Positions 19,067 through 39,291 of a DNA stretch of 64,000 nt are shown here, in pieces (positions within the stretch are counted from its first letter, which is position 1; each line of letters begins with the position of its first letter). Origin of the DNA: Myxococcota bacterium (GTDB taxonomy: Bacteria > Myxococcota_A > Polyangia > Polyangiales > Sandaracinaceae). The stretch covers positions 14,680 through 78,679 of the forward strand of contig JAYZQJ010000088.1 in NCBI GenBank assembly GCA_036149055.1, in the 5' to 3' direction. Under the pieces are notes generated by a model. The model made no database searches. It saw only the letters and a list, made by a program, of their open reading frames with translations, and was not told the origin of the DNA. Made by a program: the position numbers and the translations under genes.

Positions 19067-19531
19067 TCACCGCTCGGTGGCGGTGTTCACGAAGATCCGG
19101 CGGCCGTCGAGCTCGCTGTCGGTGAGCCCGTCGATCGCCTTCGGCGCGTCGCGCCGGTTGGCCATCGTGACGAAGCCGAAGCCGCGCGAGTTGCCGGTGC
19201 TGCGGTCGGTGACGACGACCGCGTCGGCCACCTCACCGAACTCCTCGAAGGCGCTCTTGAGCGTCTGCGCCGTGGTGTCGTAGCTGAGCCCACCCACGAA
19301 GAGGCGAGCCGGGATGGCCGTGCCGCCGCCGCCGTTGCGGGGGGCCTCCATCTGCTCCATCAGCTCTTCGACGCTGGGGCTGGTCGTGGCGATCAGCTCC
19401 TCGCGGTCGACGACGTCGAGCTCGCTGGGGCCTTCCTCGCGCTTCATCCGGCGACGCATCGCCTTCTCGCGCTTCTTCTTCGCCTTCTCGTTCTCACGAG
19501 CACGCTTGTTCTGATTGTAGCCGCGGCTCAC
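19067..19531 (-). CDS. RNA-recognition-motif (RRM) RNA-binding protein with basic N-terminal extension
   Basis: RNP2 LFVGGL, RNP1 RGFGFVTM, ELDGRRIFVN.A. Confidence 0.92.
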   Translation of the reverse strand: MSRGYNQNKRARENEKAKKKREKAMRRRMKREEGPSELDVVDREELIATTSPSVEELMEQMEAPRNGGGGTAIPARLFVGGLSYDTTAQTLKSAFEEFGEVADAVVVTDRSTGNSRGFGFVTMANRRDAPKAIDGLTDSELDGRRIFVNTATER

Positions 19532-33151: not shown

Positions 33152-36100
33152 ATGCGGACTCGCCGACTCCTCGCCTTCGCCTCCTTCGCGCTGCTCCTCG
33201 GCTGCGGCGGCCACCCCGGGGTCTTCGACCTCGCGCCCGCCGCGCGCGTCTCGCTCGGCGCCGCCGGGGGGGACGCCGAGATCGACGCGCTCGCCGCTCG
33301 CTTCTACGGCGAGACCCTCGACCCGGCCGCGATGCGCGCCGAGCTCGAGGCCGCGCTCGAGCGGCACCCGGAGAGCGCCACGCTGCACGAGATGGCGGCC
33401 CACCTCGCGGAGCTGCGCGCCGACGACCGCGCCGCCTGGCTGCACTGGCTCTCGGCGGCCAGCGACACCTCCACGCCCTTCACGGCCGTCTATCTCCAGC
33501 GGGCGCTCGGCCGGGACCTGACGGGCGGCGAGGAGCGGGCCAGCATCGCGCTGCTCCGCGAGATGTCGGCCTCGCACCCGCGCCCGGCCGCCCGGGTCGA
33601 CGCGGCCCGGCGCCTGATCGGGCTGCTCGAGCAGCACGGCCGGCTCGAGGAGGCCGAGCGCCTGGGGGCGGAGCTCGGCTATCTGCGGGCCTGGCGCATG
33701 GTCGGCGCGTTCGACAACGACCAGGGCCGCGGCTTCCAGGCCACCGAGCCGCCCGAGACCGAGGCGCTCGACCTCGACGCGTCCTTCCGGGGGCTGCGGA
33801 GCGAGGTGCGCTGGCGGGAGGTCACCCAGTACGACCGGGCCGGCGTCGCGCAGCTCGGCGCGCACCTGAGCCCCAACCGCTGGGCGGTCGCCTACCTCGT
33901 GACCCACGTGGAGAGCCCGAGCGCGCGCGAGGCGCAGCTGCGGCTCACGACCTCGAGCGCGACCAAGGTGTGGGTCAACGGGCGTCTCGTCGTGGCCCAG
34001 GACCGGCTCGCCAACGCGGCGACCGACAACTTCGTGCTCCCCATCACGCTGCGCGCCGGCCCCAACCGGATCTTCGTGAAGTCGGCTCAGGACGGCAGCG
34101 GCGCGTGGATCTTCGGCGCGCGCCTCACCGACCGCGAGGGGCGCGCGCTCCCCGGGCTGCGGGCGGACGCGGGCGCGCGGGCGGTCGAGCTCGACGCGCC
34201 CGGTGACGACTCGGGCAACCCGAGCCCGCTCGAGGAGGCCCTCGCCGCGGTCGAGCCCCCGCTCCGCCGCGAGCTGCTCCGGCACCACGACGCGGTCCGC
34301 AACGGCTACGAGGGCGACGCGCTCGATCAGGCCCGGGCGCTGCTGGAGCTCGCCCCGCGCCACCCGGTGGTGCTGCTCACCGCGGCGACGACCCACTGGA
34401 CCAACGAGGAGCTCGGGCAGGCGATGGACCTGCTCAACGAGGGCGCCGAGCGCTTCGAAGGGTCGGCGGGGTTCGCCTACCACCGCGGCGCCTTCTACCG
34501 GGAGCGCGACCGCTACGACCGGGCCATCGAGGATCTCGAGCGGGCGCGACAGCTCGAGCCCGGGGCGCGGCTCGCCGCGATGGAGCTGTCGCTGACCTTC
34601 GGGGACCGTCGCTGGCGGGAGCACCAGTGCCGGGTGCTCGACGAGGTGGTGGCGCGCTGGCCGGACAGCGGCTGGGCGGTGCGCAGCCAGGCGTGGTGCC
34701 TGGGGCAGCGCGGCTACGTGGAGGCCTCGCGGCGCGCCTACGAGCGGGCCGACGCGCTGACGCCGGGGCACATCTGGACGCTCCGGCGCCGCGCCGAGCT
34801 GGCCCGGGCCGAGGGCGATCACGAGCGCGCCCTGACGTTCGCGCGGCGCGCCCGCCGCACGCGGCCCTGGGACATGGGCGTCCTCGTCTTCGTCGCCGAC
34901 GAGCTGCGGCTCGCCGGTCGCCGCGCCGAGGCGCGGGCGCTCCTCGGCGCCGGCCTCGAGATCGATCCCGACTGGTCCTCGCCGCATCACCGCCTCGGCT
35001 TGATGGCCTTCGAGGACGGCGACACGGCGGAGGCCCTCGCCCGCTGGGCGGCGGCGCTCGAGCGTGACCCCGACAACGGCCCGCTCGCCGATCGCGTCGA
35101 CTTCCTCCGGGGGGACGAGGACGATCCGGATCGTCAGCTCATGCCGAGCGCCCAGGACATCGAGGCCGCGCTCGCGCAGGCGACCGAGATGGAGATCGAC
35201 CCCGGCGCGCACAGCGTGCTCGTGCTGGACGACGAGGTCACCACCGTGCAGCAGGACGGCAGCTCGCTGCGGCGCATCACCCAGGTGCACCTCGCGGTGA
35301 CCACCGACGGGCGCGACGACCTGATCCTCAACCGGGTGCCCGGCAACGCGCGCATCCTCGAGGCCTACAGCGTCGGGCCGGAGGGCGAGCGCCAGGAGGC
35401 GTCGTCGATCCGCGGCGGCACGATCCGCTTCCGCGGCCTCGAGGTCGGCAGCCGCGTGGTGCTGCAGTACGTCTTCCACGCCCAGCCCCCGCCGTTCCTG
35501 CCCAACCACTTCGTGTCCAGCTGGCTCTTCCAGGGGCCGCAGCGGCAGCTCGGCGTCGCGCGCTGGGTGGTGCAGGTCCCCGCGGGCCGCGAGCTCGCCA
35601 CCCACGTGCAGGGGCCGGTCGAGCACCGCGTCGAGCGCGGCGAGACCCACGACACGCACCTCTTCACCGCCGCGGGCGTGCCGCCGCTCCAGCCCGAGCC
35701 GGCGATGCCGCCGATGCGCGACGTGCTCGCCATGGTGACGCTGTCGACGCTCACCGACTGGCAGCAGTACGTGGACTGGGAGCGCGCGCTCTTGAGCGAG
35801 GTGTTCGAGAGCAACCGGCAGCTCCGACAGCTCGCGCAGCGGCTGACCGAGGGCGCCGAGACGCCCGCCGCGAAGCTCGACGCGATCTACCGCTACGTCG
35901 CCCAGGAGATCCGCTACCAGCAGGACTACGAGGACACGATCGCGGGCGTGCGGCCGCACAGCTGCCCGGTGGTGCTCGAGCGCGGCTATGGCGACTGCAA
36001 GGACAAGGCGGTGCTGATGATCCTGCTGGGCCGCGAGGTCGGGCTCGACATCCGCTTCGCCATCCTGCGCACCACCAACGCCGGCGCGGTGCGGCGCGAG

Positions 36101-36925
36101 GTGCCCAACCAGCAGTTCAACCACGCGATCGTCTACGTGCCGCAGCAGGACGGCATCGACGAGGCGCGCTTCATGGACCCGACGACCGACCTGCTCGACG
36201 CCGGCAACCTGCGCGCCGACGATCAGGGCGCGACCTCGCTCGTGCTCGACCCCGACAGCGGGGCGTGGGAGTTCGTCGACATCCCCTATCAGCCGGCGGA
36301 GATGACCTACTTCTCGTGCGACGTCGACGTGAGCGTCACCGGCGCCGAGCAGGCCACCGCCGACGCGCGCTGCCGGGGGCGTGGATCGATGGCCTCGGCG
36401 TTCCGGCGCATCATGCGCAACGAGGAGAGCGCCTCGCAGCTCCGCCAGAACCTGGCGCAGGGCATCTTCCAGGGCTCGGCGGTCACCGGGCACTCGGTCG
36501 CGCACGCCGAGGACGCCGACGCCCCGCTCGAGCTGAACCTCGAGCTCGACGCGAGCGCGGCGCTCCAGCCCCAGGGCGAGGAGCGGCGGCTGCGGGTGCC
36601 GTCTCCCTTCAACCTCGGGCGGGTGACCCGGCTGGAGCGGCGGCGGCTCCCGCTCCGGCTCGGGGTGCCGGACTCGGCGCGCTGGGAGGTCACCTTCGAG
36701 GCTCCGTCGGGCGGCCGGGTCGTGCGCACGCCGGAGGACTTCACCATCGAGCACGCCTGCTTCCGGGTCTCCCGGACCACGGTCACCCGAGGTCGGCGCG
36801 CCACCGTGACCATCGACTATCGCCGGACCTGCGCCGAGGTCTCGGCCGAGGACTACCCGGAGCTCCGCCGCCTCGCGCAGCGGGCGCAGAACCAGCTGCA
36901 GGCCGACGTCGTCATCAGCCCTTGA
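33152..36925 (+). CDS. TPR + DUF3857 + transglutaminase-like lipoprotein
   Basis: Lipobox LLGC; TPR-like helices; IRY, GDCKDKA (Cys), FNHAI (His), MDPT (Asp) triad. Confidence 0.88.
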   Translation: MRTRRLLAFASFALLLGCGGHPGVFDLAPAARVSLGAAGGDAEIDALAARFYGETLDPAAMRAELEAALERHPESATLHEMAAHLAELRADDRAAWLHWLSAASDTSTPFTAVYLQRALGRDLTGGEERASIALLREMSASHPRPAARVDAARRLIGLLEQHGRLEEAERLGAELGYLRAWRMVGAFDNDQGRGFQATEPPETEALDLDASFRGLRSEVRWREVTQYDRAGVAQLGAHLSPNRWAVAYLVTHVESPSAREAQLRLTTSSATKVWVNGRLVVAQDRLANAATDNFVLPITLRAGPNRIFVKSAQDGSGAWIFGARLTDREGRALPGLRADAGARAVELDAPGDDSGNPSPLEEALAAVEPPLRRELLRHHDAVRNGYEGDALDQARALLELAPRHPVVLLTAATTHWTNEELGQAMDLLNEGAERFEGSAGFAYHRGAFYRERDRYDRAIEDLERARQLEPGARLAAMELSLTFGDRRWREHQCRVLDEVVARWPDSGWAVRSQAWCLGQRGYVEASRRAYERADALTPGHIWTLRRRAELARAEGDHERALTFARRARRTRPWDMGVLVFVADELRLAGRRAEARALLGAGLEIDPDWSSPHHRLGLMAFEDGDTAEALARWAAALERDPDNGPLADRVDFLRGDEDDPDRQLMPSAQDIEAALAQATEMEIDPGAHSVLVLDDEVTTVQQDGSSLRRITQVHLAVTTDGRDDLILNRVPGNARILEAYSVGPEGERQEASSIRGGTIRFRGLEVGSRVVLQYVFHAQPPPFLPNHFVSSWLFQGPQRQLGVARWVVQVPAGRELATHVQGPVEHRVERGETHDTHLFTAAGVPPLQPEPAMPPMRDVLAMVTLSTLTDWQQYVDWERALLSEVFESNRQLRQLAQRLTEGAETPAAKLDAIYRYVAQEIRYQQDYEDTIAGVRPHSCPVVLERGYGDCKDKAVLMILLGREVGLDIRFAILRTTNAGAVRREVPNQQFNHAIVYVPQQDGIDEARFMDPTTDLLDAGNLRADDQGATSLVLDPDSGAWEFVDIPYQPAEMTYFSCDVDVSVTGAEQATADARCRGRGSMASAFRRIMRNEESASQLRQNLAQGIFQGSAVTGHSVAHAEDADAPLELNLELDASAALQPQGEERRLRVPSPFNLGRVTRLERRRLPLRLGVPDSARWEVTFEAPSGGRVVRTPEDFTIEHACFRVSRTTVTRGRRATVTIDYRRTCAEVSAEDYPELRRLAQRAQNQLQADVVISP

Positions 36926-37742
36926 GCACCTGACACGACGGGCAGAAGTAGACGTGCCGGCCGCCGATGTCCTCGCGGCGGATCGGCGCGTCGCAGCGGC
37001 GGCAGGGCTTGCCCGCGCGCCCGTAGACGTAGAAGCGCTTCTCGCTCCGCCGCGCGCCGCCCTGGCGGAGCCGCGCCGCCGTCCGGGCGGGGAGGGTGAC
37101 GCCGCGCTGCGCGTAGGCGCGCCGGCAGATCTCCACCGTGGAGTCGGCCAGCTTGCGGATCTCCTTCGCCTCGAGCGCCTTCGGTCGCTCCCTCGGGTGC
37201 ACGCGGGCGTGGAACAGGATCTCCGCGCGCAGGTAGTTGCCGAGCCCCGCGAGGAAGCCCTGGTCGAGATAGAGGGCGGCGAGCTGGCGGCCGTCGAAGC
37301 GGTCGTCGCGCAGCCGCTCGCGCACCACCGACGGATCGAGCGCGCCGGCCGACACGTCCGGCCCGAGCTTCGCGAGGTACGGGTGCGCGCGCAGATCGTC
37401 CGACTCGAGCACGGCGATCTCGCTCGCGGAGTACAGCCACGCGCTCTTGTCGGCGGTGTGCACCGCGAAGCGCAGCGAGCGGCGGGTGCGCGGCGTGGTC
37501 CCCCGCGCCGTGACGTACCAGCGGCCGTAGAGCTGGTTGTGGGTGTAGACGGTCAGCCCGACGTCGAAGCGCGTGAGCAGCGCCTTGCCGCGGTTGTCGA
37601 CCGCCTCGACGCGACGGCCGCTCAGCTCGTCCGCGTAGTCGCGCAGGTGGTCGAAGGCGAAGAACACCTCTTCGGCGATCTCGCCGGCGATGGCCTTCGC
37701 GAGCCGGTCGGCGGCGCGGCGGATCTCCGGTCCTTCGGGCAC
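36915..37742 (-). CDS. nei: Endonuclease VIII (Fpg/Nei DNA glycosylase)
   Basis: N-terminal PEGPE, RGKALL, HNQLYGRW, LDQGFLAGLGNYLRAEILF, CxxC..CxxCQ zinc finger. Confidence 0.95.
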   Translation of the reverse strand: MPEGPEIRRAADRLAKAIAGEIAEEVFFAFDHLRDYADELSGRRVEAVDNRGKALLTRFDVGLTVYTHNQLYGRWYVTARGTTPRTRRSLRFAVHTADKSAWLYSASEIAVLESDDLRAHPYLAKLGPDVSAGALDPSVVRERLRDDRFDGRQLAALYLDQGFLAGLGNYLRAEILFHARVHPRERPKALEAKEIRKLADSTVEICRRAYAQRGVTLPARTAARLRQGGARRSEKRFYVYGRAGKPCRRCDAPIRREDIGGRHVYFCPSCQVLKG

Positions 37743-37764
37743 GCACCAGGCCTAGGGCGAAGTA

Positions 37765-37880
37765 GGCGGCTCGACCACGAGGAGCGACGGGTGAGTCGAG
37801 CTTTGGATGTGTGGAGTTGGATGAGGTGCGTTGGAGTGGGATCGGAGGGGGAGGGTCGCTCCTCGTGATCGAGCACGAGC
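37765..37880 (-). ncRNA. Candidate sigma54-dependent small RNA or structured leader
   Basis: 20-bp inverted repeat 37769-37788/37855-37874; its one mismatch is a G-U pair only on the minus strand; 66-nt C/A-rich loop; begins at the predicted sigma54 +1. Confidence 0.55.
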
Positions 37881-37888
37881 TAGGTGTT

Positions 37889-37904
37889 TGCAGCCGGTGT
37901 GCCA
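37889..37904 (-). promoter_or_regulatory. sigma54 (-24/-12) promoter
   Basis: Minus strand TGGCACACCGGCTGCA, close to consensus TGGCAC-N5-TTGCA; predicted +1 near 37878. Confidence 0.7.
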
Positions 37905-37947
37905 CCCGCTCCGCGCGACGACCTGCGCCCGAAACGGCGTGACCGAA

Positions 37948-37993
37948 GGACACGCTGGTGACAGGTCGGCGACCCCACCCCTCGAGGGCGACA
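37948..37993 (-). promoter_or_regulatory. Possible enhancer-binding-protein tandem sites
   Basis: Minus strand TGTCGCC, GGTCGCC, TGTCACC, TGTCC; the last three are in 11-bp phase, 70-115 bp upstream of predicted +1. Confidence 0.35.
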
Positions 37994-38025
37994 AAATGGC
38001 AGCCGAACTGAACGCCCCGGGGCGG

Positions 38026-39291
38026 CTACGAGCCCAGCGGCCGCGGCGGGCGGTAGTGGACGCGCTCGGCGTCGACGGAGACCAGCTCGCGCTCCGGCCA
38101 GCGCAGCGCGGTGAGCTTGCCGCCGAACACGCAGCCCGTGTCGAGGCAGATCGTGTTGTTCACCCAACGCGTCTCCGCGACCGGGGTGTGGCCGTAGACG
38201 ACCGCCGCGCGCCCCTCGTAGTCCTGCGCCCAGTCCAGCCGGATGGGGAGGCCGTCTTCGTCGGTCTCGCCGGTGGTGTCGCCGTAGAGGCAGAACGCGC
38301 GCACCTTGCCGCCGACCCGCCCGTGCATCGACTCCTTCAGCCCGGCGTGGGCCACGACCAGCTCGCCGCCGTCGAGCACGTAGTGCGGCCGGAGCGCCTC
38401 GATGAACGCGCGCGCCCGCTCCCGGAACGCCTCCGGCTCGGCCTCGAGCGAGGCGATCGACGTCCCGGCGCCGTGCGTCGGCTTGATCTTCTTGCCCTCG
38501 AGCCAGCGGAGCAGCTTGGCCTCGTGGTTGCCCTGCACGCAGATCGCCGCGCCCGCGTCCACCATGTCCATCGCCAGCCGCAGACACCCGGCCACGTCGG
38601 GGCCGCGGTCCACGAGGTCGCCGACGAAGACGACGCGGCGGCCCTCGGGGTGGCGGTGCACGCCGTCGGCGCCCGGCGCGTAGCCGAGCCGGTCGAGCAG
38701 CGTGTGGAGCTCCGACGCGCAGCCGTGCACGTCGCCGACGAGATCGAACGGGCCGCGCTCCTCGCGCCGCTCGGGCGCCAGCTTCTCGCGCCGCACCTCG
38801 ACGCGCTCGATGTCCTGCTCGGCCAGCACGTGGACCTCCCGGAAGCCCTCGCTCCGCAGGCTCTCGAGCGATCGACGGAACTGCGCGTGGTGCTCGCGCA
38901 CGACGACCTCGGTGAACGGTCGATCCCCGCGGGCGGCGTGGCGCGCCAGGAGGGTCTCCAGCGACACGTCGAGGGCCACGACCACGATCGGGAGGTGCTG
39001 CCGCTTGGCGATCTTGCGCAGGGGCTGGCGGGCCCGGGGCTCGAGGCTCGTGGCGTCGATGACGGTCATGCGCGCGTGGGCGAGCCGCATGTCGGCGAGG
39101 CGGTGCACCATCTCGAAGGCGTCCGCGCTCACCCCCTGATCGTTCTCGTCGTCGCAGATGAGCGCCCGCATCCGATCCGACGAGACCACCTCGGTCGGCG
39201 CGAAGTGCTTCGCGGCGAAGCTCGACTTGCCGCTGCCCGACGCGCCGAGCAGCACCACGAGCGACGGCTCCGGGAGGATCAGGCTCGGCAT
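38026..39291 (-). CDS. Polynucleotide kinase-phosphatase (Pnkp kinase + metallophosphoesterase; no ligase domain)
   Basis: Walker [56 protein letters not shown]. Confidence 0.9.

Follow-up and report, generated by a model that had tools for sequence, protein, structure and literature searches.

Several bacterial regulatory RNAs that titrate proteins (CsrB/CsrC, RsmX/Y/Z and CrcZ/CrcY) occur as groups of RNAs, each repeating a short unpaired word at variable spacing, and CrcZ is driven by sigma-54 and an activator. The C-rich sRNAs cuckoo/CcsR, RsaE, LhrC and RepG expose UCC words in unpaired regions, and several of them are Hfq-independent. In bacterial Y RNAs, pairing of the two RNA ends encloses a pyrimidine-rich loop, and the helix that binds Ro60 is bulged. 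In myxobacteria, Pxr of M. xanthus has been described as an sRNA of approximately 100 nt whose sigma-54 promoter is controlled by an NtrC-type activator (PMC5568312, PMC5684412). In Bacteroides, GibS and FopS are different sRNAs that have a single-stranded motif in common and are associated with RbpB, an RRM protein (PMC11697453).

The locus described here lies in a 64,000-nt stretch of a Myxococcota bacterium (Sandaracinaceae), referred to as the window (Table 1). Like Pxr (RF01812; PxrK/PxrR), the predicted RNA is myxobacterial and has a sigma-54 promoter with upstream activator sites, but Pxr forms three stem-loops and is encoded directly behind pxrR, whereas here a single clamp encloses one large loop, and in 11 loci, each spanning about 3 kb, no activator gene adjoined the RNA. 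RF01812 gave no match up to E 10 in the 37600–38200 region, and the genome-wide and phylum-sample searches with this family were also without a match, but none was obtained in any control either. The CsrB, RsmX and CrcZ groups differ in their word, which here is CAUCC instead of GGA or an A-rich motif, and is placed in one clamped loop. GGA, as in the CsrB/RsmZ sponges, is found here only on the opposite strand, which is disfavoured by the G-U versus A-C counts given below, while the A-rich motifs of CrcZ/CrcY are bound by Hfq-Crc, unlike the C-rich loop of this genome, in which hfq was not found. The C-rich anti-SD sRNAs carry their words in small hairpin loops, in contrast to the single loop of 49–72 nt seen here, where CCUCC is not enriched and no Rfam match was obtained. 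The likeness to GibS and FopS consists of a motif common to different sRNAs and of RRM genes being present, no sequence likeness being claimed; the differences are that each FopS RNA has one seed, that the promoters are of other types and that pairing targets were shown there. The likeness to Y RNAs raised by the earlier note extends to the paired ends, the pyrimidine-rich loop and the presence of Ro60 in the genome, but a Y RNA identity was not supported: the clamp is an unbroken helix, no Rfam family was matched, and the RNA is not linked to Ro60, which is encoded on another contig (C148).

Table 1. Positions of the predicted RNA, its promoter and structural elements, the adjacent genes and related loci elsewhere in the genome
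Feature	Position	Strand	Basis or remark
Predicted sRNA	37769..37878	-	~110 nt up to the clamp end; start and 3′ end predicted; covered by RNA-library contigs of runs X3 and X8
Sigma-54 (-24/-12) promoter	37889..37904	-	Predicted +1 near 37878
End clamp, 5′ arm	37855..37874	-	Covariation
End clamp, 3′ arm	37769..37788	-	Covariation; without U-tract terminator behind
C-rich, G-poor loop, 66 nt, predicted open	37789..37854	-	Composition and word counts
CAUCC words in loop	37823-37819, 37809-37805	-	
AUCC in loop	37842-37839	-	
CCUCC in loop	37854-37850, 37848-37844	-	
Distal upstream activator site, predicted	37989..38001	-	Imperfect 13-bp palindrome TGAC-N5-GTCA; 97 bp before the sigma-54 box
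Proximal upstream activator site, predicted	37959..37971	-	TGAC-N5-GTCA; 67 bp before the box, 30 bp (three turns) from the distal site
Short Pnkp-like protein	38026..39291	-	Kinase and phosphoesterase domains, without ligase domain
Endonuclease VIII (nei)	36915..37742	-	Possibly read through from the RNA's promoter in this organism
Probable paired-site regulon in G000 (this genome)	C158:24430-24560, C6:9322, C204:42417, C7:78460, C123:12672, C9:86797		gsp operon, second gspD, gspG-like gene, three unknown-family proteins
Second sigma-54 small RNA	G000 C243:37346-37470		Sigma-54 box, CAUCC/CCAU repeats, terminator-like hairpin

The RNA gene and its conservation in the family

The earlier note had proposed a sigma-54 box at 37904-37889 followed by a 20-bp end pairing with one wobble, and both were confirmed in coordinates and sequence, the wobble being a U-G pair at 37868. 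The G-poor loop proved to be as claimed as well: its 66 nt include 36 C and 4 G, with seven UCC and two CCUCC motifs, which read as seven GGA on the plus strand. The fold had a z of -6.5 and equal stability was reached in 0/200 shuffles. The sigma-54 box is one of the 20 strict boxes of the genome, and of the genome's 126 G-poor, C-rich windows this was the only one with a 20-bp clamp and such a box, the runner-up clamp being 12. Most of these 126 windows represent two dispersed pyrimidine-rich repeat types, which are often tandem and located near contig ends. The RNA gene itself is single copy in the genome, and the mobile repeat that many genomic copies would have indicated was rejected. A small protein gene was also rejected, since no reading frame is conserved on either strand. 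Searching the region against Rfam matched no family, and a terminator with a U-tract was not found after the 3′ arm of the clamp.

Homologues were collected in three steps: BLAST found 2 among 61 genomes, a first model 8 true members in the 32 family genomes (its match in G013 was discarded on inspection), and a second model raised this to 11 of the 32 genomes, representing 7 of 12 genera. In a tree of the candidate activator protein, a 100/100 branch separates precisely the 11 carriers from the other genomes; the tree is based on this one marker in 29 rows, three incomplete genomes without the marker being left out; G023, an unpublished genome, enters the tallies and the tree only. The sigma-54 box was kept in 11/11 carriers, the clamp measured 14–20 bp and began at +1 to +6, and the loop was 49–72 nt long with 45–60% C. 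Over 17 core pairs in eight homologues, 124 cells were Watson-Crick, 9 G-U, 0 A-C and 3 other (97.8% of cells pair), and 10 cells had changed on both sides, while RNAalifold returned 16 pairs for the 11 sequences with both-side changes in 7, neither set of counts being corrected for kinship. The 9 G-U against 0 A-C cells bear out the minus-strand assignment, and the homologues that the earlier note had called for have both stem and promoter conserved, with compensatory changes. Its proposal of a stand-alone, sigma-54-driven minus-strand small RNA is thus backed by promoter, spacing and clamp in 11 genomes. In contrast, its two alternative folds were not upheld, as the local fold is 15 kcal/mol weaker here and 15–28 kcal/mol weaker in 11/11 homologues, without a common shape.

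The gene that follows the RNA is nei in 2/11 carriers, a convergent gene in 6/11 (within about 30 nt in four of these) and another same-strand gene or open frame in 3/11. Since the following gene varies, no frame is kept and the alternative fold is weak, the conserved unit is the RNA gene and not a leader. On the other side, Pnkp lies directly upstream in 5/11 carriers and a pnkp match was found within about 3 kb in 8/11, which is probably synteny only. The short Pnkp ending after the phosphatase domain recurs in G001, G005, G008, G011, G014, G017, G021, G022 and G097, most other relatives having the long form, and no Pnkp relatives were found in viral contigs. A TPR-transglutaminase-like gene at 33152-36925 has a close orthologue in 8/32 family genomes, all of them RNA carriers, and adjoins the RNA or is near it in 7 genomes. 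An RRM-domain protein with a basic N-terminal extension is encoded at 19067-19531, 18 kb from the RNA.

Outside the family, no convincing match was found among 151 genomes of the order in a search that was insensitive, because it missed the true member G002; five weak matches were returned (E 0.011–0.084), and the four inspected lacked the same open C-rich loop. With a strict pattern, 21 loci were matched in genomes, one of the seven inspected being the RNA, and two in metagenomes, which were near-copies of G000 and G001. At the end of one metagenome contig (L111), the sequence upstream of the RNA is a fold-back chimera, in all likelihood produced artificially during amplification or assembly. 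Two candidate sRNAs, apparently unrelated, were seen in other families: in L146 (G117) a sigma-54-like box is followed by an end-paired structured RNA, and in L143 (G110) by a long hairpin with a U tail. No published description of the RNA was found in the open full-text literature, which leaves subscription journals mostly uncovered. From the comparative sequence data we concluded that this predicted non-coding sigma-54 RNA gene is real, conserved and clade-wide, and that it apparently represents a new family.

Upstream palindromes and the type II secretion genes

The TGTCRCC repeats pointed out earlier upstream of the promoter were only partly meaningful: the word alone is not enriched (20 in the window vs 23.5 expected), but two of its copies are conserved, each forming the right-hand half of a 13-bp palindrome. 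A pair of these sites 30–31 bp apart was detected in 10/11 carriers, compared with 35 of 75,897 random genome windows; in G002 the pair is shifted by one turn and in G011 it is absent. As the pattern was derived from 8 of these carriers, G010 and G002 are the independent cases.

A matrix built from these sites selected 5 of the 293 sigma-54-like boxes in the genome: one is that of this RNA, one belongs to a gspG-like gene and the remaining three to genes without a known family. The same site pair was present upstream of the second gspD. The main gsp operon (gspC) is preceded by two sites separated by 41 bp, which immediately follow the gene for an NtrC-type activator (C158:23081-24418). When five genomes were searched with the pattern, 17 matches were obtained vs 0 in the reversed control; four of the 17 were this RNA. 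The other 13 included three before gspD-like and two before gspG-like genes, six before orthologues of the three site-pair proteins of this genome, one before an unmatched small protein and one without a called gene; one pattern match was in G003, a genome without the RNA. Where gspC abuts the activator gene, the DNA separating the two genes contains a sigma-54 box and the site pair in 7/7 genomes, and no site pair was seen in the 420 nt behind the activator gene in the other 22 genomes.

These patterns suggest that the input of the RNA is likely a type II secretion-linked regulon. The genome encodes at least 44 NtrC-type activators, among which the protein encoded just upstream of gspC would activate the sigma-54 promoter of the RNA. 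By gene order, this activator is probably Nla4-like, because nla4 (MXAN_2516; PMC11980068) and gspD (MXAN2514; PMC3222651) are near each other in the M. xanthus numbering. PilR was set aside as the activator on weak evidence, namely that the palindromes of the pilA promoter have a 7-nt spacer and not 5. This promoter (G000 C228, upstream of 15250, minus strand) contains two TGAC-N7-GTCA palindromes, a candidate PilR site.

The CAUCC word, a second RNA and possible modes of action

In the 11 loops, CAUCC occurs 21 times vs 11.3 in dinucleotide shuffles (0/2000), and with one genome per genus 12 times vs 6.4 (p 0.0045), which makes it the word that exceeds chance most. It is present in 10/11 loops in varying number and spacing, the loop of G011 being without it. 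The emphasis of the earlier note on the anti-SD CCUCC was borne out as far as its two copies in the loop are concerned, but this word is not enriched beyond composition (12 vs 8.7, p 0.13) and is missing from 3/11 loops. The wider word (A/C)UCC was counted 53 times vs 34.8 (0/2000), UCC and CUCC were enriched too, and the KH-type word YCAY was not above dinucleotide shuffles in the loops.

Three or more AUCC(A/C) follow a strict sigma-54 box in 2/20 cases, compared with 33 of 49,594 non-coding windows; with the first RNA left out, about 0.01 repeat-followed boxes are expected. The second sigma-54 small RNA has a predicted single-stranded CAUCC-repeat region, a hairpin with compensatory changes and its own upstream palindrome, GGCAC-N3-(G/C)TG(G/A)CAC. 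In 8 genomes (loci L266, L268, L313-L315, L317, L321 and L324) it sits behind a gene whose product is an SH3-like repeat protein, two of these copies having been assigned by synteny alone and three by a pattern that required the motif. Among the copies, CAUCCUCC, which contains the anti-SD sequence, is kept in 7/8 and CCUCC in 8/8. No convincing Rfam match was obtained for the second RNA, nor does the model of the first RNA match it. At the syntenic place it was not found in G022 and G010, and in G011 the marker gene was not found. An order-wide CAUCC pattern matched 79 of 401 genomes; half of the 8 regions retrieved, all from within the family, proved to be the second RNA. Two further CAUC-repeat stretches followed by strong hairpins, where no sigma-54 box was seen, are located at C7:45979 and C202:37399 of G000 (both on the minus strand), one intergenic before a thioredoxin-like gene and the other right after a stop codon.

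Protein-titrating RNAs characteristically repeat a short unpaired word at loose intervals. Because two unrelated RNAs, each with upstream sites of its own, have such a word in common, we favour, with a probability of roughly 0.45, the reading that they form a protein-titrating sRNA pair, in which the CAUCC words of the clamped loop would bind and titrate an RNA-binding protein. The clamp may protect both RNA ends and keep the loop single-stranded, and the 3′ end could arise when a longer transcript is trimmed as far as the clamp. Two activators would then feed via two RNAs into one post-transcriptional regulator, in the manner of CsrB/CsrC or CrcZ/CrcY. A more specific version, which we put forward tentatively, is a Csr-like circuit in a Rho-less branch (in this genome also Hfq-less), where two unrelated sigma-54 RNAs would titrate one CAUCC-reading protein, the first, with its words in the loop of the covarying clamp, being switched by the type II secretion activator and the second by another.

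Several findings weigh against titration. The search for proteins showed KhpA, KhpB and five RRM-domain matches to be present but identified none as the binding partner; the loop of G011 is without CAUCC; YCAY does not exceed shuffles; and in mRNA leaders CAUCC shows no clear enrichment (rank 5 of 20 permutations), which leaves no regulated sites to be seen. As to other proteins, csrA was found in 7/11 carriers but not in G008, G017, G022 and G010 (86–96% complete), and its copy in this genome lies behind flagellar hook genes; a CsrA sponge on the plus strand, already less favoured in the earlier note, is therefore unsupported. The rho gene was not found in 32/32 family genomes, the control being positive in 8/14, and a Rho decoy, considered since the loop resembles a rut site, was rejected on this ground.

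In bacteria that lack Hfq, base pairing is the usual mode of action of C-rich sRNAs. For this reason, and since UCC is enriched in the loops and the second RNA keeps the conserved anti-SD stretch, multi-site pairing with ribosome-binding sites explains the data nearly as well as titration. With the same gene and the same regulation, the C(A/C)UCC words of the loop would pair with GGAGG or GG-AUG of many mRNAs and block translation without Hfq, which we consider a serious possibility, though at less than even odds. The enrichment of (A/C)UCC, the retention of CCUCC in all copies of the second RNA and the failure to find hfq in this genome agree with it, as does the order of words: CAU followed by CUCC within 8 nt, fitting an SD sequence and a start codon, was seen 11 times vs 4.8 (p 0.004), but this excess is lost once each genus is represented by a single genome (p 0.17). 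The lack of CCUCC enrichment and its absence from 3/11 loops speak against it. In a weak scan of one genome with 7,950 crude gene calls, no mRNA target signal rose above shuffles; duplex energies, best helices and shared-target counts were no better than those of the shuffles (122 genes vs about 84–158 scaled). A 15-nt anti-loop pattern gave many matches in five genomes that read as an ordinary RBS and ATG, their orthology being unchecked. Described sRNAs favour pairing: the function of Pxr requires a loop base (PMC5568312, PMC5684412), and mRNAs are paired by GibS and FopS, which have a seed in common (PMC11697453).

RNA-library contigs, possible processing and the downstream gene

Parts of the region are contained in eight RNA-library runs from five studies, and their contigs suggest that the RNA may be expressed. 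The runs were selected for containing the region, and the contigs give neither strand nor ends. X1, from a seawater study, contributed long near-identical pieces across the neighbourhood; its low cover at 37816-38116, the depth figures and the uncovered parts were given no evidential weight. From the same study, the contigs of X3 (37643-37867) and X2 (37510-37790) both bridge the clamp into nei, while in X5 and X7 only nei is covered. The single adapter-flanked fragment of X6 crosses the predicted start and therefore represents DNA or read-through. In X8, from another study, the sole contig in 3.3 kb is the loop, a 104-nt record with a depth of 4.8. The contigs of X3 and X8 end at 37867-37868, near the predicted start, which is a weak hint because the perfect inverted repeat has its edge at this position as well.

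The X8 record corresponds to a closed 74-nt cycle (37791-37864) plus a 30-nt overlap. The clamp could be a processing signal, at which RNase III or another nuclease frees the loop as a shorter or circular RNA, possibly healed by Pnkp. RNase III is present in the genome, the ligase-less Pnkp lies directly upstream in 5/11 carriers, and Pxr is processed in steps (PMC10217877). However, the record is one contig of low depth, its joint has a 4-nt microhomology typical of template switching by reverse transcriptase and is asymmetric, unlike an RNase III cut, so that the cycle is most simply a template-switch product and less probably a true circle; moreover, the short Pnkp is also found in genomes without the RNA (G021, G097), while G004 has the long form only. 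We regard this role of the clamp as improbable.

Least probable of all is the structured 5′ leader or switch for nei suggested earlier, which as a main role is largely refuted: nei begins 26 nt past the clamp here and is also downstream in G011, the X2 and X3 contigs bridge into it and no terminator intervenes, but it follows in only 2/11 carriers, a convergent gene follows in 6/11, the closest relative has nei on a different contig from the RNA, and the alternative fold is weaker and not conserved.

In the literature covered, a role has been worked out for just one myxobacterial regulatory RNA, Pxr. The RNA described here adds an apparently new family in which both the input, a likely type II secretion regulon, and the repeated word are defined, and this word recurs in a second RNA. 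The TGAC-N5-GTCA palindrome provides a testable candidate binding site for the Nla4-like activator. If the titration of a protein by the two RNAs holds true, it would imply a new bacterial RNA-binding regulator; if pairing is true, the RNA would be a multi-site anti-RBS RNA that works without Hfq.
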